Positions 36,001-45,394 of a DNA stretch of 64,000 bases are shown piece after piece; position 1 is the first letter of the stretch, and the number at the start of each line of letters is the position of its first letter. The DNA is taken from NCBI GenBank assembly GCA_963716395.1, contig OY970309.1:1856001-1920000 (forward strand), given 5' to 3'. This DNA comes from an uncultured Fibrobacteria bacterium. GTDB lineage: Bacteria > Fibrobacterota > Fibrobacteria > UBA11236. The position numbers and the translations under genes are program-made. The notes below the pieces were generated by a model. It saw nothing but the letters and a program-made list of their open reading frames with translations. It made no database searches and had not been told where the DNA came from.

Positions 36001-36116
36001 CCAGCGGACTCGCCATCGGCACTTTGTTCACACTGCTGGTGGTGCCGGCCGTATACATGCAGATCGCCAGCAATCACGTGAAACCACGCGCAACGGCCGA
36101 TAGCTCTACAGTCTGA
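33048..36116 (+). CDS. RND efflux permease (MexI/MexW-like)
   Basis: MKFTDIFIRRPVLA, GLVVDDAIIVVEN, KHGILIV and RLRPILMT motifs. Confidence 0.95.
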   Translation: MKFTDIFIRRPVLAMVVSLFLLVLGLRSFGTLPILQFPRTQNAVITVSTTYFGADPDLVAGFITTPLENAIAQVNGIDYMTSSSTNSRSVITVNLKLNYDADKALTEMNAQISSVLNQLPPQTQKPVMTISIGQTLDAMYIGFSSKELPSNRITDYLQRVVQPKLQAVDGVQTAELLGAKNFALRAWLNPKKLAAYGLTAADVSAALAQNDFLSGVGNTKGLMVQTNLNASTNLHSLDEFRNLVIRQSGHAMVRLKDIANVTLGADDYDSQVSFDGQDATYIGIQVAPSANLLDVIKRVREVMPELQAQLPEGIDARIVYDSTRFVNSSIQEVIKTLIEAILVIMLVIFAFLGSPRSVLIPVIAIPLSLIGTFTFMLAFGFSINLLTLLAFVLAIGLVVDDAIIVVENVSRHIEEGVPPMQSALHAARELAGPIIAMTVVLVSVYVPIGFQGGLTGALFTEFAFTLVGTVTVSAIIALTLSPMMCSRLLRPHRPEDTGLESRVVHFINATFEKVRKVYARTLHNSLDYLPVTAVFALIVLGSIYFLYSAAKHELAPQEDQGVIIASLTPAPNSTLQQQELYSQQNYRIYAKHAETDHVFQFDLPGRMFAGMVLKPWDERDKTTNQLQPVVQKELGDIAGVQAVAFQPPSLPGSRGLPIQFVIGTTQPFDRLNDVVQNFLEQAQKSGMFMFINSDLRIDLPQSTVEIDRNKAALLGLSMQDIGNSLAAMLGGGYVNYFSLSGRSYKVIPQVQQRYRLNTSQLLNYYIRTASGTSVPLSSVVHITTKTAPESLNHFQQLNAATVQGVASPGITTGEALSYLKHLADRTLPQGYSIDYAGQSRQFMQESTGFVTLFAFALIIIFLALAAQFESFRDPFIILVSVPMSVAGALIFVSLGIGGASLNIYTQVGLVTLMGLISKHGILIVQFANNLRREGKTKREAIEEAATIRLRPILMTTAAMVLGVIPLIVASGAGAAARYNLGLVIASGLAIGTLFTLLVVPAVYMQIASNHVKPRATADSSTV

Positions 36117-38355
36117 TGGTCAAACCGCCGCGGAACTGCCTGGGCTCGGCGGGATGAAAAACAAGGTCATCCACACCGTCCGCGGGTTCTCCCGGCAGGC
36201 GGGTCACATAATCGTAGGCCATGTCGTCGACCTGGGTGTCGAAAATATTGAAGACGTCTCCGTACACACTCACATGGCGGTTGAGGGCGCAGGTGATTTG
36301 ACCGTTGAACAGGGTCGAGGAAGAGGATCGTACGCTGTTGTCCTGGGTGAGCGCGCGGGGTCCGAAAAAGCGCATGAACAAACCCGCCGACCACGGTCCC
36401 AGGCGGTGGAGTGAAACGCCCGCTGAAACCGCGGACTCGATCGCCTCGGGCACGTACTGCCCCTCCGAATCGGGATCCACAAACCTGGCCCGCGAAAACG
36501 CAAGGTCGAGGTCGAAAAGCAGCCAGGGCACGGGTTGGTAATGCTCATTGATCTCGATCCCCATTCTGCGCGTAGGGCCTGCGGGTTCGGTGGTTCCCTC
36601 GTCGGCATCCCACACCAGCTCGGAATTGAAGTCCAACAGCCACAGCGCCAACGAGCTTTGCAATCCGGGTACCGCTTCGGAACGGCCGCCGATCTCGAAA
36701 CCGCGCGACCGGACGAGCAGTGAATCCTGGCTGATGGTCTCGCCGCTCTTGGCATCGATCGTGGCGGTGGCGCCGCGGGCGTCGTTGGAGTGATAGCCGT
36801 CCCCGAAGTTCAGGTAAAATTCCGTCTTCGCCCAAGGCCCCAGAATGAGAGAGGCCTTGGGCAGCAGGATGCCTTCGGAAACCCATCCCGAATTGGCGGG
36901 ATTGCTCGCCTGCACATTGGCGCCCAGAAACGCGTAACGAAGACCGAGGTAAAGGCGGCTCCAGGATGTGAAGTGGCTCTCCAGATCGGTCCAGTACCCG
37001 ACGGTCGGTTCCTGGACCGTGTCCACGGCCCAGGGATTCAGCCGCATCCGGTCCATGGTATGGTAGAGCGCGACGGGAGCGATGTCATCGTAGCGTGCGT
37101 CCAGGCCGAGCCGTAACTTTTCCCCCCATCCCAGCACGGAGCCATCCTTGGTCCACCGCTCCGAAGTCCCGAAAATCCAGCGATTGTCCAACTGCTCCAT
37201 TTGATCGCCGTTCACGGTGTCGTCGAGGAAAAAGGTGAAGTTGGAATACAGATTCATGTCGTACTTGACGGCGTAGGCGTTCGCGCGCAAGGCGCCGCCC
37301 CCCAATTCCCCGTCCCAGGCCGTGGAAAAGCTGTAGCGATGCGAAGAGCCGCCGTCGCTGGAATCGAGCGTTCCGTAGTAGTCCACCGCCCCTTCCGTGA
37401 CCGCTCTTTCGGGGATCTGGTTCGTGGCGTTCCACGTGCCCGAGTAGGCCATGCCTTCGAGGCTGAACAGGCCGCTGCCGAGCGGGTGGCTCCAGCGCAG
37501 CAGTTCGTTGAATTTTCGGTAATCCTCCGGCACATCCCACGGGCCGTCCTCATGCAAGGCTTCGATCCCGAGCAAGAGTTTACCGCCGAAAAGATCCGCG
37601 GAGGCTCCGCCGATGGAACGGTTATACCCGAAGGCGCCGAGGGTCTGATCCAGGAAAGGATGGGCCACGCTGTTTTCGTAATAAATATCGGCCGCGCCGG
37701 CTGAGGCAAAATCACCCCTCGAAGCATCGTAGGGGCCTTTCGTATAGTCGACGTGATCGATGAACTCCGGCAGGAGGAAATTCAGGTCATCGTAGCCCTG
37801 GCCATGGGCATGGGTGGGAAGGTTGACCGGCACGCCGTCGACCGAGGTCGCGAAATCGGTACCGTGATCGAGATTGAACCCGCGCAGCAGGAATTGGTTC
37901 GCTTTGCCGGCACCGCTGTGCTGCGTTACGATCAGCCCGGGAACCAATTCCTCCACTTCGCCGGGCCTTAACAGCGGCCTGTCTTCCAGCAACTCCTTGG
38001 TGTAGGTTCCGCTGCTGGCGGCGTCTGCGGAGCCTAAAAGGCCTTGGTAATGCCCGACCACGATGATCGGCTTCATGGGTTTAACGACTGCCGTATCCTG
38101 CCGAACATTCGGTTTCGCAGACGAACCGCTTACGGTGGCGACGGTATCGTGCTTGACCGCGCTCGTCGAATCGGCCTCAACTTGCGCCGGCAGGGTCTGC
38201 GGTTCGGGCACCTGACCGAAGCCGGCTCGAGCCCACGGCAAGGCGGCCAAGAAAAAAAAGAGCCCGCCGCGAATGAGCTTAGGCGCTTTCGGGTTGACCT
38301 GCGAGTAGCCCCGGAAGCGCATCTGCGTCTGGGCGAGGAAAAATTTTGTTGGCAT
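36106..38355 (-). CDS. TonB-dependent outer-membrane receptor (possibly metal uptake)
   Basis: Plug motif QHSGAGKANQFLLRGFNLDHGTDF, KGPY, beta-barrel pattern, C-terminal PRQFRGGLTIRL; start placed at ATG 38355. Confidence 0.9.
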   Translation of the reverse strand: MPTKFFLAQTQMRFRGYSQVNPKAPKLIRGGLFFFLAALPWARAGFGQVPEPQTLPAQVEADSTSAVKHDTVATVSGSSAKPNVRQDTAVVKPMKPIIVVGHYQGLLGSADAASSGTYTKELLEDRPLLRPGEVEELVPGLIVTQHSGAGKANQFLLRGFNLDHGTDFATSVDGVPVNLPTHAHGQGYDDLNFLLPEFIDHVDYTKGPYDASRGDFASAGAADIYYENSVAHPFLDQTLGAFGYNRSIGGASADLFGGKLLLGIEALHEDGPWDVPEDYRKFNELLRWSHPLGSGLFSLEGMAYSGTWNATNQIPERAVTEGAVDYYGTLDSSDGGSSHRYSFSTAWDGELGGGALRANAYAVKYDMNLYSNFTFFLDDTVNGDQMEQLDNRWIFGTSERWTKDGSVLGWGEKLRLGLDARYDDIAPVALYHTMDRMRLNPWAVDTVQEPTVGYWTDLESHFTSWSRLYLGLRYAFLGANVQASNPANSGWVSEGILLPKASLILGPWAKTEFYLNFGDGYHSNDARGATATIDAKSGETISQDSLLVRSRGFEIGGRSEAVPGLQSSLALWLLDFNSELVWDADEGTTEPAGPTRRMGIEINEHYQPVPWLLFDLDLAFSRARFVDPDSEGQYVPEAIESAVSAGVSLHRLGPWSAGLFMRFFGPRALTQDNSVRSSSSTLFNGQITCALNRHVSVYGDVFNIFDTQVDDMAYDYVTRLPGEPADGVDDLVFHPAEPRQFRGGLTIRL

Positions 38356-38563
38356 AAAAACTCCCGGTTTTTTTGAACGCAGCTCTGGTATTATTATTTT
38401 AATAAACGTAATAAGTACACTCCGTTCCTCCCAAGCGCAAGGCGTTTCGCGGCGAATTGGTTCTTCCTGGGGATCGGTGATATTGGGTCGCAACCCGAAG
38501 CCGGCCGGCGCGGCACACAGGTCGCCGCTTCGGGGTCGGGCGCGAAATTGATACACTTTCGGC

Positions 38564-40009
38564 ATGGAAATGAGTGAAGCGTTAAGCCGATTCGACGCCC
38601 TGACGCCCCTCGTGCTGGGCGACAGTTTTATCGATGAATACGTAACCGGCGACTGCTCGCGGCTTTCGCCCGAGGCCCCGGTTCCGGTGCTGCATGTGGA
38701 TGCGGGACAGACCCGGCGCGTGTTGGGAGGCGCAGCCAATACCGCCGCCAATATCGCCGCCTTGGGCGGCAAGCCGGTGCTCTTCGCCCTGTACGCGCGC
38801 GACGACATGGGCCAGGAATTTGAAGCGCAATGCGCGGCCGCGGCCGTAACCCTCGAACCTTTTCACGACGGCCGCCCCACGCCACGCAAGACCCGGCTTT
38901 TGGGCCAGCGCCAGCAATTGCTGCGGCTTGATTATGAGGAAACCCGCGACGTCGAGGCCGATGTCGAAGCGCACCTATTCGCCGTTTTTCAACGGCGCCT
39001 GCCGCACGCCGATTTCGTGGTCTTCTCCGATTATGCCAAAGGGTTGCTCACGGCCGAGCTTGCCCCGCGCCTGATTCGCGCTGCCCGCGCCGCCGGAAAA
39101 CCGGTGATCGTCGATCCGCGCCCGCAGCATGCGGACCGCTACCACGGCTGCGATTACCTTACGCCCAACTGGAAGGAATCTTTGGGCATGCTGGGCCGCG
39201 GAGAACTCGAACCCACCATGGCCAATGTGCGCGACGTCGGCGACACCTTGCGGCGGCGGCAGGAATCGCATGTGCTGCTCACCCTGGGCCCCAAGGGCAT
39301 GGCGTTTTTCCATCGCGACTCCGGCGAATTCTTTCACCTTCCCACCGCCGCGCGCGAAGTGTATGACGTGTCCGGCGCTGGCGACACCGTGGTGGCGGCC
39401 TTCGCCCTGGCCCATGCGGCCGGAATGTCGCACCGCGCGGCCGTCGAATTGGCCAATCGCGCCGCGGGCGTGGTGGTGGGCAAATTGGGAACCGCCACGG
39501 TCACGCGCGAGGAGTTGTCGCAGCCGTCGTCCGGGGGCGGTTTGCTGGTCCGGAACCAACTGGCGCCTTTGGCCGCCTTGCTGCGCGCCCAGGGAAAATC
39601 CATCGTGACCCTCAACGGCTCCTTCGACCTGTTGCATGCCGGCCACTTGCACATTCTCACAGAGGCCAAAAATCAAGGCGACATGCTGATCGTGGGCTTG
39701 AACAGCGATGCTTCGGTGCGGCGCTATAAGGCGGCTGGGCGCCCTTTGATTCCCCAGACCGAACGCGCGCGCATGCTGCTGGCCCTGCGTTGTGTGGACT
39801 ACGTGCACATCTTCGACGAAGACGTGCCCATGCCCTTTCTCGCAGCCGTGCGACCCGACGTGCACGTGAACGGGTCGGAATACGGCCAAGACTGCATCGA
39901 AGCCCCGACGGTCCGGCGCTTCGGCGGCCGCATCCACATCGTGGAAAAAATCCCCGGTCTTTCCACCAGCGCGCTTCTCGACCGCATCCGTAACCTGCCG
40001 GTGTCGTAA
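38564..40009 (+). CDS. hldE: Bifunctional D-beta-D-heptose 7-phosphate kinase / heptose 1-phosphate adenylyltransferase
   Basis: RLSPEAPVPV, SDYAKG and DVSGAGDTV (PfkB kinase); NGSFDLLHAGH, GLNSDASV and GLSTS (cytidylyltransferase fold). Confidence 0.93.
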   Translation: MEMSEALSRFDALTPLVLGDSFIDEYVTGDCSRLSPEAPVPVLHVDAGQTRRVLGGAANTAANIAALGGKPVLFALYARDDMGQEFEAQCAAAAVTLEPFHDGRPTPRKTRLLGQRQQLLRLDYEETRDVEADVEAHLFAVFQRRLPHADFVVFSDYAKGLLTAELAPRLIRAARAAGKPVIVDPRPQHADRYHGCDYLTPNWKESLGMLGRGELEPTMANVRDVGDTLRRRQESHVLLTLGPKGMAFFHRDSGEFFHLPTAAREVYDVSGAGDTVVAAFALAHAAGMSHRAAVELANRAAGVVVGKLGTATVTREELSQPSSGGGLLVRNQLAPLAALLRAQGKSIVTLNGSFDLLHAGHLHILTEAKNQGDMLIVGLNSDASVRRYKAAGRPLIPQTERARMLLALRCVDYVHIFDEDVPMPFLAAVRPDVHVNGSEYGQDCIEAPTVRRFGGRIHIVEKIPGLSTSALLDRIRNLPVS

Positions 40010-40013
40010 GCCC

Positions 40014-40391
40014 ATGCGCATCCACGCGCTGGATTCTTTTTCCGAGGCCCCGCGCGGAAAATTCGTGCTGCTGCGCTTTCGGGGAACGGTGCATTTCGTT
40101 TCGGGATCGGTGGAGCAGCGGCCCTATCACGCGAATCTCATCTTCGACTTCTTCGCGCAAACGGAATGGGGCCGCGCCGAATGGGAGGGGGAGACCCGGT
40201 GCGCAATCCGCACCCCGGGTTGGGAGATTCTCGGCGGCGGCCGCTATGAAATCGACGAGGCCGAGGGCGTGTTGATTTTATCCGAGAAGTCCACTGCCTA
40301 TGGAAAGTTCTCCGCGGAAGAAATCGCTGCGCAGGCGGCCGATTTGCTTGCGGCCATGCCGTCTCCGGGTTTTCGTCTGCGCCTCGATTGA
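40014..40391 (+). CDS. Janus/Ocnus (PHPT1)-like small phosphatase, putative
   Basis: KFVL, YHANL, LGGGRY and STAYG match the PHPT1 motifs KYVL, YHADI, LGGGRI and SMAYG; 4 nt after the hldE stop. Confidence 0.65.
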   Translation: MRIHALDSFSEAPRGKFVLLRFRGTVHFVSGSVEQRPYHANLIFDFFAQTEWGRAEWEGETRCAIRTPGWEILGGGRYEIDEAEGVLILSEKSTAYGKFSAEEIAAQAADLLAAMPSPGFRLRLD

Positions 40392-40702
40392 GAGGTCGCA
40401 TGCACCTTCGGCGCGAGGAGATGAATTTTCTCGGTTCTCGCACATTGTTATCCAAATTTTGGTATGTGGTTACCTTAATCAAGGAGTTTTTACCCGTATT
40501 TCGTTATCCGAAAAACGAAATTTCTGAATGCAATTTATAGGATAATTTCTAATTTAAGCGGAAATAAGCCGGATTATGGCTGTATACCGTTATCCCTCTA
40601 TAAAGAATTGATTGTTTTCCGGTCCCGTTATCGAATATATTGACCTTAACTTCTTCGGAAGTCGGAGACTGCGAAACACATCACTACCACGGAGAGAGGA
40701 TC

Positions 40703-41518
40703 ATGAAACTTACCAACGCCATTTCACCCGTTCTGAAATACAGCGCTGCGGCCGCGCTGTTGACCTTGGGATTCACCGGCTGCATGACTTCGCCGAGTAG
40801 TAGCAGCAATACGGCCGGCTACACCAGCAGCGGTGAAAGCGCCTTTATCAAACAAGAATCCGAAAACATGGGCCAGGTGTGGAACAGCGGCGCATCGGCC
40901 TCGACTTCGACCGGCTTGGCCAAAGAGGCTTCCGACACCGTCATGGACACCATCACCGGCGACCTGGTGATCACACCGCTGCACTATGACTCCGCCTGCC
41001 AATGCTTTGTGCGCGTGGCGAATTACACCAGCTCGGTGGGCTTCGAACGCCAGCGCCTCGACAGCATCACCTTGGTTGACTCGAACGGCAATCCCATGAG
41101 CCGGTTTCGGCCGTTGCTGGCGAAGACCATCATCCATAACCGGCACGTGACCCGAATCCGTAGCAATCTGGGTACTGAGGTCGACGTCAATTTCAATACC
41201 ACTTTGACCTGGGCCGACAGCGGCAGCAAGCGCGTCGGCGTCTGGAACGGTACCATCACCGGAACCTTCAACGGCGTGACGTTCAAGACGGGCAGCATCG
41301 ACAACGTCGTGCGCACCTGGTACCCCCTGTTGCTGCGCTTCGGATTTCCGTCATCCGGTTCCATCGATATCGATCGCATCTCGGGCAAAGGGGCCGAATT
41401 CACGCTCGACATCGTCTTCACCGGCGAAGGCTCGGCCGATGTGTCCGTGACCAATAAAGCGACGGACAAAACGCTCACGATTCATATCGGATTGAACAAC
41501 GTGGAAACTTCAGGATAG
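40703..41518 (+). CDS. Hypothetical lipoprotein, beta-strand rich
   Basis: GGAGAGAGGA SD, FTGC lipobox, Ser/Thr-rich linker. Confidence 0.8.
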   Translation: MKLTNAISPVLKYSAAAALLTLGFTGCMTSPSSSSNTAGYTSSGESAFIKQESENMGQVWNSGASASTSTGLAKEASDTVMDTITGDLVITPLHYDSACQCFVRVANYTSSVGFERQRLDSITLVDSNGNPMSRFRPLLAKTIIHNRHVTRIRSNLGTEVDVNFNTTLTWADSGSKRVGVWNGTITGTFNGVTFKTGSIDNVVRTWYPLLLRFGFPSSGSIDIDRISGKGAEFTLDIVFTGEGSADVSVTNKATDKTLTIHIGLNNVETSG

Positions 41519-41598
41519 GTCGAGGGACGCGGCCTTGGGGCTACGGCCCTGGGGCCGCGGGGCCGCCATGAACGTGTTCGTTCCCCATACCATTTCCC

Positions 41599-41633
41599 GA
41601 CCCGCTTTTCCGAGAGGCGGGTCTTGTTATTCT
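41599..41633 (+). terminator. Probable Rho-independent terminator after the lipoprotein gene
   Basis: GACCCGCTTT-TCCG-AGAGGCGGGTC hairpin followed by TTGTTATTCT; a second GC hairpin lies at about 41530-41559. Confidence 0.55.
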
Positions 41634-41647
41634 GAAATGTAAAGATC

Positions 41648-42547
41648 ATGGAACCACAGCCCCTCCCCGCCGCGCGACCGAACGTCTACCAATACGACGA
41701 TTTCCGGGCCTTTTTGCGCGACGCCTTCGCGTTCAAAAAAGGCGAAGACCCGGAGTATTCCCACCGCAAGTTCGCCCGGGCCGCAGGCATCGCCAATCCC
41801 GGCTATCTGCTCGACGTCATTCTGGGCAAGCGACCCTTGAGCCGCAATCAGGCTGCGAAAATGGCGCCGGTGTTCGGATTAAACGAGGCCGAAGCCGAAT
41901 TTTTTTTCCGCTTGGCCGAGTTCGGCCAAAGCAAAAAAGACGCGGAGCGGCAGGAGTTGTACCACGATTTGCTGTTGCGCCGCAACCGCAGCCGCTTTGC
42001 GCGCCTCAGCCCTTCGCTGGTCAAGTATTATCAGGATTACCGCTACGCGCTGGTGCGCTGTGCGGTCGAAGCCCTGGATTTCCGCGGCGATTACGAGGCC
42101 CTGGGAAAATTCCTCGATCCGCAGGTGGCGCCGGCCGTGGCGCGCAAATGCGTGCAAGAACTGGAAGCATGGGGACTGATCGTGAAGGACGAAAGCGGCC
42201 GCTACCGCGTCACGCAGAAATTCGTGGAGCCGCCGCCCACCCTGTCGGCCATGGTGCGCCGCCTGAACCGGGAATGGATTCTGCAGGCGGCCGAAGTGCC
42301 GTTTAAATTTGGTCCGGAGGATCGGCATGTCTCCGCCCTTTTGCTGATGGTGAGTGAAACCACGCGCCGGCAGTTGATGGCTAAGGTCGAGCAGTTCCGC
42401 AAGGAAGTGCTGGACTTGGTGGAAAAGGACGAGCATCCCGAAACCATCTTGCAACTATCGGTGCAACTGTTTCCCAAGTCACGCCGTCCAGCGCGTCCGG
42501 GTCGCGAAAAGAATCGCGAAAAGAATCACGAAGAGGAGAAGCCATGA
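41648..42547 (+). CDS. TIGR02147/DUF4423-family protein (N-terminal HTH-like)
   Basis: NVYQYDDFRAFLRD, SHRKFARAAG, YLLDVILGKRPL, EAEFF..L..F.Q, R.VS.L and QLSVQLFP pattern typical of the Fibrobacterota/Bdellovibrionota paralogous family. Confidence 0.85.
   Translation: MEPQPLPAARPNVYQYDDFRAFLRDAFAFKKGEDPEYSHRKFARAAGIANPGYLLDVILGKRPLSRNQAAKMAPVFGLNEAEAEFFFRLAEFGQSKKDAERQELYHDLLLRRNRSRFARLSPSLVKYYQDYRYALVRCAVEALDFRGDYEALGKFLDPQVAPAVARKCVQELEAWGLIVKDESGRYRVTQKFVEPPPTLSAMVRRLNREWILQAAEVPFKFGPEDRHVSALLLMVSETTRRQLMAKVEQFRKEVLDLVEKDEHPETILQLSVQLFPKSRRPARPGREKNREKNHEEEKP
42502..42532 (+). repeat. 12-bp tandem repeat TCGCGAAAAGAA (2 copies plus a partial), encoding REKN-REKN
   Basis: Read directly at the 3' end of the TIGR02147 gene, just before the next SD. 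Confidence 0.7.
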
Positions 42548-43884
42548 GATTTGCGACCGGGATCGCCATCCTGGCGGCCACTCTGCTCGGGGCCTGCGTC
42601 TTCGAGCAGCAAACGGCGGGCGGCGAAGATTTTCCCAATACGCTGGAACCCCTGGGCAAGGCGGCCGCCGAACCCATCGCCAACCACACCCAATGGGATC
42701 AATTCCAGAACATTCCGGCCGTGCCGAACGTTCAGTCCAGCGACACCCTGGCTCAGCCCGCGCCCACGGCCAAACCCGCTTTGGCCAAGATCGCGGCGTC
42801 AGACAGCGCCACCTGGGATTTGCGCGACACGGCCTTGGCGCAGGGCGGCGTGGCGCGGGAATACGTGGTGAAATCCGGCCTGTTGAAAATCGAACGCGAT
42901 ACCTTGGTCTATCGATGGAACGCGGCCTTCGGGGATTCGGTTCCCGGCAGCGCCGTATTGCTCGAAGTGCGCGGCCGAACCCTGACCTATCTCACTTTGC
43001 GCCTGTTGGTTTACCGCTATTTGAATCTGGATTCGAGCGGCGCCTTGGATCAGGCGGATTTCACGGAATACACCGTGGGTTTCGCCGACAGCGCGGTGCA
43101 TATTCTGCACATCAAGATGCTGGCCGGTCCCGACGGCGATTTGGCGACCTTGGGCGACAATTTGTGGAAGCAGTACGAGTTTCTGCGGGTGCGCGGCGGA
43201 ACCGACACGTTGGAATGGACGCGGGTGGTCGACGCCGACGGCGACGGCCTGTTGTGGTCCGGCGGTGATTCGGGGATGGTGGACTTGCGGCAAGACGTGG
43301 AGTCGCCCGCGTTACGGCCGCAAGACCTGCATCTGTCGCTCAACTTGCGCGCCAAGGTGTACCACAAAGGCGACAGCGCGATCCCGCTGGCGTATACCGA
43401 GACCAACGCGTTGCGCAACGGGGTGACGACGGTTTTTACGGCCAAGGGCGTGCATGTCGACTCGCTGCTCATTCCCGGCGACACGGCCGTGGTCACCTTC
43501 GACCAGATTTATCCTCCAGATGCGGACCGGGTAGAGTCCTATGCGCGTTACCGCATTCTGCTGGCGTCCCAGCCGTGGCATTTCGCCGACAACGCCCTCA
43601 TCCGCTTCCACGCCGAAAATACCTGGCGCGCGGGCGTCATCCGCAGTGCGATCATGGATTTTACGCCTGACAGCATGGTGGTTTCGGGCCAGCTGCAGAT
43701 CGCGGGCAGCTTCACTTTGAGCGTGGTGTACGATGACGGCGGCACGGGTGCGGTGACCGGAACCTACCGCAATCACATCATCGCGGCCACCTTGCACCAG
43801 AATAAAGCGGGTCTGCTGCAAACTTTTTCGCTGAGCTTCGACGCCAACGGCAAATTGCTGACCCAATCCTTGCTGCCGCCATGA
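42544..43884 (+). CDS. Hypothetical lipoprotein translationally coupled to TIGR02147
   Basis: ATGA overlap, GAGGAG SD, LGAC lipobox followed by AGGEDFPN; DADGDG Ca-binding-like loop. Confidence 0.85.
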   Translation: MRFATGIAILAATLLGACVFEQQTAGGEDFPNTLEPLGKAAAEPIANHTQWDQFQNIPAVPNVQSSDTLAQPAPTAKPALAKIAASDSATWDLRDTALAQGGVAREYVVKSGLLKIERDTLVYRWNAAFGDSVPGSAVLLEVRGRTLTYLTLRLLVYRYLNLDSSGALDQADFTEYTVGFADSAVHILHIKMLAGPDGDLATLGDNLWKQYEFLRVRGGTDTLEWTRVVDADGDGLLWSGGDSGMVDLRQDVESPALRPQDLHLSLNLRAKVYHKGDSAIPLAYTETNALRNGVTTVFTAKGVHVDSLLIPGDTAVVTFDQIYPPDADRVESYARYRILLASQPWHFADNALIRFHAENTWRAGVIRSAIMDFTPDSMVVSGQLQIAGSFTLSVVYDDGGTGAVTGTYRNHIIAATLHQNKAGLLQTFSLSFDANGKLLTQSLLPP

Positions 43885-44104: not shown

Positions 44105-45250
44105 TTAACCGGGTTGGTTCCGCGGTTGAATTTCGGCGCGCAGGGCCGCGAAGGCTTTCCACACCGTCTCCGCCCGCAAGGTTTTGAGGCATTCCTTGTA
44201 ATTCGGATTGACGCAGCGGTGACCGCAGGGCCGGCAGGGCATGGGTTCAACCTGCACGCACCGCGTCAGCGGCCCGCGCGGTTCCACGTGCCGGGCGTCG
44301 GACGAGCCGTTGATCCAGAGCACGGGTTTGCCGTAATACCCGGCCATGTGGCCCAAAAAATTGTCGGTGGCCACCACGCCGGCCGCGTTCTGCACCTGGC
44401 CCGCCAGCCGCAACAGCGGTCCGCGCCAAAAACCCACGCGCTGCGCCCAGCGGCTGCGGAAGCGCGCAAACCCGGCGCCGGCGTCAGGGGGATCGAGAAT
44501 CAGCAAGGGCAAGCGCGACTCCGTCATTTTTTCCAGCAAGTCGTCCCAATGCTCGAAGGGCCAGTTCTTGGAGTCTTTGCGCGTCCAGCAGGAAAGAATC
44601 CACGGCGCGGTGACGGTGTCGAGGAGGGGAAAGGAACGGGTCTCGCGGCGCAAACCGGCCGATGACGTCAGCGCGCATTTCTTTTCCCAATTGCGGCGAT
44701 GCTCCCAAAACGCCGCGGCCACGGCGGCGTTCTTGTCGGCTTGATGCACGGCCTCGGCCGGCAGGGGAAAGCGATACTGGAAAAACCAGGCGTGCGGCCG
44801 TGCATAGGAGGTCACGCGGCAGGCGCCGGCCACGCGCAGCCAAAAGGCGCTGCGCGGATCGGCATCGAAGTCGAGCGCCCAATATCCCAACGCGCCCCGC
44901 AGCTTGCAGGCCGCCGCCCCGGTGCGCAGAAAAGAGCGCAGTCCCGGCCGCCGGAAAAAGGCGTTGTCGAAGGCCAAGCCCTCCAGCCCCTCGGCCTGGA
45001 GCAGTTCGAGGCAATCGGGACGGCAAACGATTTGCACGCGCACGTGGCTGGCCAAGGTTTTGATCGCCGGCAGCGCCAGATATAAATCGCCGATCATATA
45101 ACTCTGGAAAATCGTGAGCGGCGCAGCGTTGTCGCGCGGTTTTTTCCGTAGCAGCCACAGCCAGGGCGTCAGGGCCACGGCTCCCGCCGCCGCCATCCAC
45201 CCTGGCCCGCGGCGGCGGGGGAGGTTCGGGTTGTCGGAGGACCAGGGCAT
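44105..45250 (-). CDS. GT9 (ADP-heptose:LPS heptosyltransferase-like) glycosyltransferase
   Basis: MIGDLYLALPAI, KNWPFEHW, ATDNFLGHMA and CRPC...C...C C-terminal motif. Confidence 0.85.
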   Translation of the reverse strand: MPWSSDNPNLPRRRGPGWMAAAGAVALTPWLWLLRKKPRDNAAPLTIFQSYMIGDLYLALPAIKTLASHVRVQIVCRPDCLELLQAEGLEGLAFDNAFFRRPGLRSFLRTGAAACKLRGALGYWALDFDADPRSAFWLRVAGACRVTSYARPHAWFFQYRFPLPAEAVHQADKNAAVAAAFWEHRRNWEKKCALTSSAGLRRETRSFPLLDTVTAPWILSCWTRKDSKNWPFEHWDDLLEKMTESRLPLLILDPPDAGAGFARFRSRWAQRVGFWRGPLLRLAGQVQNAAGVVATDNFLGHMAGYYGKPVLWINGSSDARHVEPRGPLTRCVQVEPMPCRPCGHRCVNPNYKECLKTLRAETVWKAFAALRAEIQPRNQPG

Positions 45251-45394
45251 CGGCGTAACTTGGATGTTTCGGGTAAAAATAGCCAATCGACCGGGGTCCG
45301 ACGCGGCTTTTACCGGTCCCGCGCGGTTTTTTGCGGGGGGCTGCGTTTTGGCGAACCGGTCTGTCTATTTTGCTGGCCGCAAACCCCGGTCCGC

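Follow-up and report, generated by a model that had tools for sequence, protein, structure and literature searches.

What does a small gene packed directly behind hldE in a Fibrobacteria chromosome encode, and does its product take part in the synthesis of ADP-heptose? The window analysed here is a stretch of 64,000 nucleotides (contig OY970309.1 of assembly GCA_963716395.1, positions 1,856,001 to 1,920,000) from an uncultured soil member of the Fibrobacteria, whose genome is assembled as one contig of 3.75 Mb (99.2% complete). At positions 38564 to 40391 of this window, hldE is followed by an open reading frame (ORF) of 125 residues, referred to below as the Janus-like gene. A first-pass annotation, made from the DNA alone, had placed this ORF 4 nucleotides after the hldE stop codon, had picked out residues K16, H39, R77 and S93, and had assigned the product to the PHPT1 (Janus/Ocnus) family of phosphohistidine phosphatases; the coordinates and translation agree with that description. 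It had further suggested that the protein either replaces GmhB, the phosphatase of the ADP-heptose pathway, or is a phosphohistidine phosphatase linked to the synthesis of the lipopolysaccharide (LPS) core. The comparisons described here indicate that the product is a genuine bacterial relative of human PHPT1, and that the gene forms a conserved pair with hldE in one lineage of the Fibrobacterota. Replacement of GmhB was rejected. The two genes are arranged as follows (window coordinates):

38564..40009, plus strand: hldE, bifunctional heptose-7-phosphate kinase / heptose-1-phosphate adenylyltransferase, 481 residues (ORF list, Pfam, NCBIfam)
40010..40013, plus strand: spacer GCCC, 4 nucleotides, from the hldE stop codon TAA (40007-40009) to the ATG at 40014 (sequence)
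40014..40391, plus strand: predicted Janus/Ocnus (PHPT1-fold) protein, 125 residues, long bacterial subtype (ORF, AlphaFold2 model, Foldseek, VIA-align, PF05005 matches of homologues)

Homology of the Janus-like protein to PHPT1

A word-indexed search recovered three relatives of the Janus-like protein, and an exhaustive phmmer comparison with 1.84 billion cluster representatives recovered 107 representatives at E<=1e-3. Sixty-six of these 107, together with P0002 and P0003 from the word-indexed search, make up alignment A1 (68 rows, i.e. P0001-P0070 minus two very long proteins). PF05005 (Janus/Ocnus) was matched by 53 of the 68 homologues in A1, with a best E of 2.3e-9, and the A1 profile found human PHPT1 (2ai6, 2nmm and 2hw4) at E 3.2e-7 to 4.8e-7. 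A PF05005 profile scan of the host genome gave no match, in a run whose controls gave none in any genome either. The AlphaFold2 model built on A1 has a mean pLDDT (predicted local distance difference test) of 97.4 and a predicted template-modelling score (pTM) of 0.90. When this model was compared with the PDB by Foldseek, the best five matches were all PHPT1 chains (E 3e-6 to 3e-5, probability 1.00, TM-score 0.57-0.69), and the sixth-best reached only E 0.1. VIA-align superimposed 101 residues on PHPT1 with a root-mean-square deviation of 2.7 Å (Z 11.9, 11.2 and 10.4; next chain Z 3.8). The fold of SixA (His_Phos_1) was found neither in the protein by Pfam nor among the chains matched by structure, and NCBIfam and Pfam gave no match of the protein to models of GmhB or of the haloacid dehalogenase (HAD) fold, the predicted fold being that of Janus.

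Direct hidden Markov model alignments of A1, A4 and A2 (the Fibrobacterota clade, 15 rows) to PHPT1 covered the C-terminal half only and left the histidine out of register, because about 16 extra residues lie between helix 1 and the GGG strand. Alignment A5, composed of short-type homologues, was therefore used as a bridge. A5 aligns with PHPT1 (2ai6) at E 6.7e-13, pairing GKFVLL with FKYVLI, EYHADI with EYHADI, CLGGGR with CLGGGR and YS..G with YSMAYG, and A2 aligns with A5 at an hhalign probability of 97.8% with the registers unchanged, YHAN falling on YHAD. By these chained profile alignments, K16, H39, R77 and S93 are the equivalents of K21, H53, R78 and S94 of PHPT1. The PHPT1 numbers H53, R78 and S94 were verified by counting along the printed PHPT1 segment; K21 is numbered partly from the chain range of the A5 alignment and partly from what we take to be the N-terminus of the protein. 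The elements of the putative active site, and the insertion, are located as follows:

40059..40061, plus strand: codon of K16 (corresponding to PHPT1 K21), in G15-K16-F17-V18-L19 (chained profile alignments)
40128..40130, plus strand: codon of H39 (corresponding to PHPT1 H53, for which a role as general base is proposed), in Y38-H39-A40-N41-L42, at the N-terminus of predicted helix 39-49 (alignments, AlphaFold2 model)
40161..40208, plus strand: insertion of about 16 residues (residues ~50-65), with predicted short strands 55-57 and 63-65, containing C63 (hhalign gap, model)
40233..40244, plus strand: codons of G74-G75-G76-R77 (corresponding to PHPT1 G75-G77 and R78), within L73-G74-G75-G76-R77-Y78 (alignments)
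40290..40304, plus strand: codons of S93-T94-A95-Y96-G97 (corresponding to PHPT1 S94-M-A-Y-G98) (alignments)

The spacing from R to S is 16 residues, the same as in PHPT1 (R78 and S94 of 2ai6_A), as the first-pass annotation had remarked; the K-to-H and H-to-R spacings are unlike those of PHPT1. The insertion, situated between the helix that starts at H39 and the GGG strand, is found neither in PHPT1 nor in the short-type homologues. Since homologues match PF05005, the A1 profile and the modelled structure both match PHPT1, and the chained alignments pair the motifs, we consider the ORF product to be homologous to PHPT1, which upholds its assignment to the Janus family. With relatives in 23 of the 296 Fibrobacterota genomes, 16 invariant columns across the 15 clade sequences and 107 library matches, the ORF is a real gene.

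Most of the residues concerned are strongly conserved. K16 is present in 66 of the 68 A1 rows (two gaps) and H39 in 67 (one gap), both being found in 15/15 clade rows, and G74-G76, S93 and G97 are conserved in all rows of both alignments (68/68 and 15/15). Residue Y96 is Y in 63 of the 68 A1 rows and F in the others; the clade rows have 7 Y and 8 F. That the histidine, the lysine and the phosphate cradle are (near-)invariant argues for retained catalysis, and membership of the PHPT1 family combined with such catalysis appears highly probable to us. The Fibrobacterota clade has in addition invariant residues of its own, i.e. H27, P37, C63 (15/15 rows), W70 and K92.

Linkage to hldE in the Fibrobacterota

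The hldE product contains a PfkB domain (E 7e-38) and a cytidylyltransferase-like domain (CTP_transf_like, E 2e-17) according to Pfam. It matches the NCBIfam model NF008454 (HldE) with 393 bits over model positions 2-473 of 475 and is regarded as a divergent HldE, because this full-length match stays under the cut-off of 521 bits. No terminator-like site was identified between hldE and the Janus-like gene, in a scan that gave 4 such sites against 4.1 expected from shuffles. From this and the spacer of 4 nucleotides we infer that the two genes are co-transcribed. Prediction of a complex between HldE and the Janus-like protein gave a score of 0.00 against a mark of 0.32, a result that speaks neither for nor against binding. 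A fusion with HldE, suggested by open frames of 433-500 residues, was rejected, as these frames arise by reading through the GC-rich hldE region in the wrong frame and do not contain HldE sequence.

Of 296 Fibrobacterota genomes scanned with a profile, 23 carry the Janus-like gene, the present one included. The other carriers are 21 of the 31 other genomes of the same family (f1) and the single genome of family f3; the scan did not find the gene in any other Fibrobacterota family searched, including f5 (0/151). Within the genus, one of the ten other genomes carries the gene and nine are without it. The tallies for carriers, hldE linkage, GmhB-like genes and hldE include G276, an unpublished genome that itself carries the gene.

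In 21 of the 23 carriers hldE lies immediately upstream of the Janus-like gene. The arrangement in other genera (loci L122-L131, e.g. L129 at G013:C44) consists of a sigma-70 gene (285 residues), hldE and the Janus-like gene, followed by convergent mnmE-yidC-rnpA. This genome and the f3 genome share with those genera the hldE-Janus pair alone, with different flanks. As the pair is kept while the flanks differ, it has survived flank rearrangement. Sequence identity across the linked loci amounts to 55-65% for HldE and 31-43% for the Janus-like protein. The linkage to hldE is real but lineage-bound, being found in two families (f1 and f3) of one Fibrobacterota order.

The hldE gene is far more widespread, with matches in 108/296 genomes at E<=1e-60, yet it occurs in only 1/151 genomes of f5. 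Some genomes of the family (G014, G023 and G276) have a second hldE or hldA-like copy apart from the Janus-linked one, for example G014:C20 beside G014:C62, and G023:C37, which comprises the kinase part only. Four congeners (G003, G005, G006 and G010) have hldE and the downstream genes ordered as here, without a Janus-like match between them. The DUF4423 gene and the 446-residue ORF found downstream are kept in all four, the 292-residue ORF is matched in G005 and G006 only, and in G005 about 190 nucleotides separate hldE from the next gene. These congeners retain hldE without the Janus-like gene, which is therefore dispensable in an hldE-bearing genome.

The wider bacterial family

The Janus/Ocnus family had been taken to be mainly eukaryotic. 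This does not hold for the relatives found here, nearly all of which come from bacterial metagenomes or metagenome-assembled genomes (MAGs). In the ESM Atlas, the nearest clusters carry the automatic name of Janus/Ocnus domain proteins; cluster 1 has 343 members (60% Bacteria, commonest phylum Nitrospirota), cluster 2 has 114 (50% Bacteria) and cluster 3 has 92 (41% Bacteria, commonest Uroviricota). Few relatives have a named source, these being a 'hypothetical protein' of one bacterial MAG and one of an Acidobacteriota MAG. A search of genomic contigs with the narrower alignment A3 gave at least two loci.

The gene neighbourhood of the wider family was studied in 80 metagenome loci, which belong to one subgroup (about 134 residues) and are related to one another rather than independent. 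A convergent yceG/mltG gene accounts for 18 of the 67 neighbouring ORFs scanned, and at loci L041-L092 many of the ~134-residue Janus-like genes end 8-11 nucleotides from the end of this gene. The tail-to-tail arrangement may be lineage synteny, the loci being related. The upstream neighbours vary, and include an OppC-type permease, a GGDEF protein, endonuclease V and others.

Several other matches were noted at the margin of the family. The short-type homologues P0146, P0148, P0149 and P0150 from metagenomes are 103-129 residues long and rich in K, N and I, with a PHPT1-like spacing from His to GGG and with GGGR kept. A weak match (E 2e-4) lies in an uncultured 642-kb phage record (LR756502.1:413727-414035); the phage collection gave no match to the 125-residue protein itself. 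Two metagenome records, P0005 (1780 residues) and P0061 (1894 residues), match the query in short stretches and contain scraps of many Pfam families that have nothing to do with one another (SAM, insect cuticle, STT3 and Polo box among them). They look chimeric or artificial and do not look like true fusions.

The ADP-heptose pathway and the GmhB question

GmhB acts between the two reactions catalysed by HldE. As the first-pass annotation had stated, no GmhB is encoded inside the window (C1:1856001-1920000); the best GmhB-like match of the genome is found 650 kb away, at G000:C1:1244626-1245162. It is a HAD-IIIA phosphatase that stays below the cut-offs of two models, NF006506 (160 bits against 178) and TIGR00213 (136 bits against 149.6), and its translation shows the DxDGT and CxH...CxC motifs. 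A strong match to this family (E<1e-42) is present in 30 of the 32 f1 genomes, with or without the Janus-like gene, and the two genomes lacking such a match are 75% and 86% complete. GmhA (193.5 bits, cut-off 209) and HldD (365.5 bits, over its cut-off) are encoded as well. With the GmhB-like protein, GmhA and HldD all present, the pathway has no missing step.

The first-pass annotation had proposed to look for conserved linkage to hldE together with absence of gmhB. The linkage was observed; the absence of gmhB was not, in view of the GmhB-like gene elsewhere in the genome. Its suggestion of a non-orthologous replacement of GmhB by the Janus-like protein was rejected on the grounds of this gene, its occurrence throughout most of the family and the four congeners that keep hldE and its flanks without the Janus-like gene.

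Some of the surrounding genes have recognisable domains. A 393-residue ORF on the minus strand (44105-45286), 4 kb downstream of hldE, contains a GT9 (heptosyltransferase) domain (E 2.4e-10), which gives the region some LPS-core flavour beyond hldE itself, and a link of the Janus-like gene to LPS-core synthesis is possible. Between the two, on the plus strand (40640-43884), lie the 292-residue ORF (no Pfam family), a gene for a DUF4423 protein (41648-42547) and the 446-residue ORF. On the other side, a 900-residue ORF on the minus strand (36106-38808) has a TonB-dependent receptor Plug domain at residues 264-371 and has about 245 nucleotides in common with the 5' end of hldE. Its first ~80 residues merely mirror the opposite strand of hldE in the congeners, so that the true start is probably further in.

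Proposed function

We propose that the Janus-like protein is a metal-independent phosphohydrolase of the PHPT1 type, probably acting on N-phosphoryl substrates, which is co-transcribed with hldE and has an accessory role; we lean towards this reading by somewhat more than an even chance. The protein would be a cytoplasmic enzyme of a divergent, long bacterial subtype of the PHPT1/Janus family. In a 2024 review (PMC11277029), His53 of PHPT1 is described as the general base that activates water for direct hydrolysis without a phospho-enzyme, several histidine and arginine residues are said to matter, and the evidence for phospholysine as a substrate is called limited. Carried over by homology to the Janus-like protein, this chemistry would make H39, at the beginning of helix 1, the general base that activates water to attack the phosphoryl group, while K16, the G74-G76 strand and the loop S93-x-x-Y96-G97 would hold the phosphate. 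Hydrolysis would likewise be direct, without a phospho-enzyme intermediate. The substrate would carry a labile phosphate, most likely an N-phosphoryl group (phosphohistidine, phospholysine or of the phosphoramidate type). The gene would form a two-gene transcription unit with hldE, inherited in one Fibrobacterota lineage, and its product would be neither a step of the ADP-heptose pathway nor a substitute for GmhB.

Several observations weigh against this proposal. Searched on its own, the 125-residue protein matched no family of Pfam or NCBIfam at E<=1, and phmmer against PDB sequences gave BMPR2 and GNAT at chance level only. The position of PHPT1 R45 is occupied by S30 in the Janus-like protein, and R77 is R in 16 of the 68 A1 rows (K in 9 more) and in 1 of the 15 clade rows, that of this protein alone. 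Of the four equivalences to PHPT1 put forward in the first-pass annotation, all four positions align; R77, taken there for a catalytic match, is unconserved in the relatives. R45 and R78 are presumably the important arginines of PHPT1, and two of the three basic residues round the PHPT1 site are not kept. The substrate surface would therefore differ, and the enzyme may be weakly active or act on a substrate other than that of PHPT1. The catalytic core is intact and its basic surroundings are altered, leaving room for a different substrate. Moreover, hldE was found within the fetched flanks of none of the 80 wider-family loci, and in two carriers, G279 and G012, hldE and the Janus-like gene are on separate contigs. 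Being confined to related genomes, the pairing may reflect an inherited order of genes and not function. Finally, the genome has a SixA-like gene (G000:C1:1785899-1786375, minus strand; all 154 model positions, 66.7 bits, cut-off 74.5), so that the usual bacterial phosphohistidine phosphatase may already exist there. The genome may hold candidate phosphohistidine phosphatases of both the SixA type and the PHPT1 type.

Three other explanations were weighed. The lack of hldE at the wider-family loci, together with their variable upstream neighbours, would fit a protein phosphohistidine or phospholysine phosphatase with targets unrelated to heptose, whose place after hldE is inherited order kept by tight packing. 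Dispensability of the gene within the genus points the same way, as do the copy in G279, which directly follows a sigma-70 gene without hldE, and the presence of HPr and many potential phosphohistidine proteins in the genome. We nevertheless consider this rather unlikely, since the pair is found in at least two flanking contexts at the identities given above, which exceeds what neutral gene order would lead one to expect. A small protein without catalytic activity, serving HldE as partner or regulator and still possessing the Janus fold, would agree with the tight operon position and with loss of the R45 and R78 equivalents, but is hard to reconcile with a catalytic His, a Lys and a whole phosphate cradle that are (near-)invariant over 68 diverse sequences, and we regard it as very improbable.

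An enzyme acting on a sugar phosphate of the HldE reactions would fit an hldE gene adjoining across 4 nucleotides, a linkage that 21 of 23 carriers preserve even though the flanks change, and the heptosyltransferase gene 4 kb away; the lost basic residues of the PHPT1 site make a different substrate plausible. Such a heptose-phosphate phosphatase might be a back-up for GmhB, removing the 7-phosphate of heptose 1,7-bisphosphate, or a brake or proofreader acting on the labile anomeric 1-phosphate. Against it stand the GmhB-like HAD phosphatase in this genome and in nearly the whole family, the congeners that keep hldE without the Janus-like gene, and the wider-family loci without hldE; in addition, hydrolysis of alkyl phosphate monoesters is not known for PHPT1. 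We judge this explanation improbable. Equally doubtful in our estimate is a broader form of the idea, in which the hldE-linked clade would have kept the PHPT1 fold but shifted its target, from phosphohistidine in proteins to a phosphorylated compound, intermediate or by-product, that arises as ADP-heptose is made. Possible substrates would be, for example, an N-phosphoryl modification of the core heptose or the acid-labile anomeric phosphate carried by beta-heptose 1,7-bisphosphate and by heptose 1-phosphate. The accessory N-phosphoryl phosphohydrolase described above is the reading that we prefer.

Relation to known systems and significance

Human PHPT1 (14 kDa; 2ai6, 2hw4 and 2nmm) and the Drosophila Janus/Ocnus proteins (PF05005) are the closest known counterparts, with the same predicted fold, a length of 125 residues and equivalents of the K, the H, GGG(R) and S-x-A-Y-G. 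The Janus-like protein differs from PHPT1 by an identity of only 17-19%, by the insertion of ~16 residues after helix 1, by Ser at the R45 position, by an R78 equivalent that is unconserved among relatives, and by its lying below detection by the Pfam model; it is also bacterial and encoded in a probable operon with hldE. The uncharacterised bacterial Janus/Ocnus-like proteins from metagenomes (~130-140 residues), known from Acidobacteriota and unclassified MAG records and from the Nitrospirota-rich clusters of 343 and 114 members, share with it the long subtype with the insertion and the same invariant residues, at 25-38% identity by BLASTP and 20-34% in A1. They differ in that hldE adjoins the gene at none of the 80 loci studied, all of one subgroup, and many are tail-to-tail with yceG/mltG, and the invariants H27, C63, W70 and K92 set the Fibrobacterota clade apart from them.

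The Janus-like protein, encoded beside hldE, would resemble GmhB (the HAD-IIIA D,D-heptose 1,7-bisphosphate 7-phosphatase), which acts between the two HldE reactions, in being a phosphatase; its fold is unrelated and without HAD motifs, and the GmhB-like gene of this genome lies elsewhere. SixA, of the histidine-phosphatase superfamily, possibly shares a phosphohistidine substrate class with it, but has an unrelated fold and a separate gene in this genome. SixA works via a phosphohistidine enzyme intermediate, unlike the mechanism proposed for PHPT1. The literature consulted treats PHPT1 as an enzyme of mammals or animals; in a 2020 article on SixA (PMC7948535), the phosphohistidine phosphatases with proposed in vivo targets are the bacterial SixA and the mammalian PHPT1, PGAM5 and LHPP. 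In open-access full text and bioRxiv, no literature was found on hldE together with a phosphohistidine phosphatase and no description of a bacterial PHPT1/Ocnus member, and the combination of Ocnus with phosphohistidine led to Drosophila work only. Some bacterial relatives are already tagged PF05005 in databases; the Janus-like protein therefore adds a divergent member to a known family, in a genomic context that is new, and is not a new kind of system.

Together with the hundred-odd metagenomic cluster representatives, the Janus-like ORF reveals a bacterial branch of the PHPT1 fold that is of considerable size and still uncharacterised. A tempting mis-annotation is corrected, in that the gene is not a missing GmhB, and the pairing with hldE in one lineage provides a concrete starting point towards a bacterial substrate. 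If the retargeting to ADP-heptose synthesis should prove true, it would represent a new regulatory or proofreading step in the supply of LPS-core precursors, and a physiological role would for the first time be assigned to a bacterial homologue of PHPT1.

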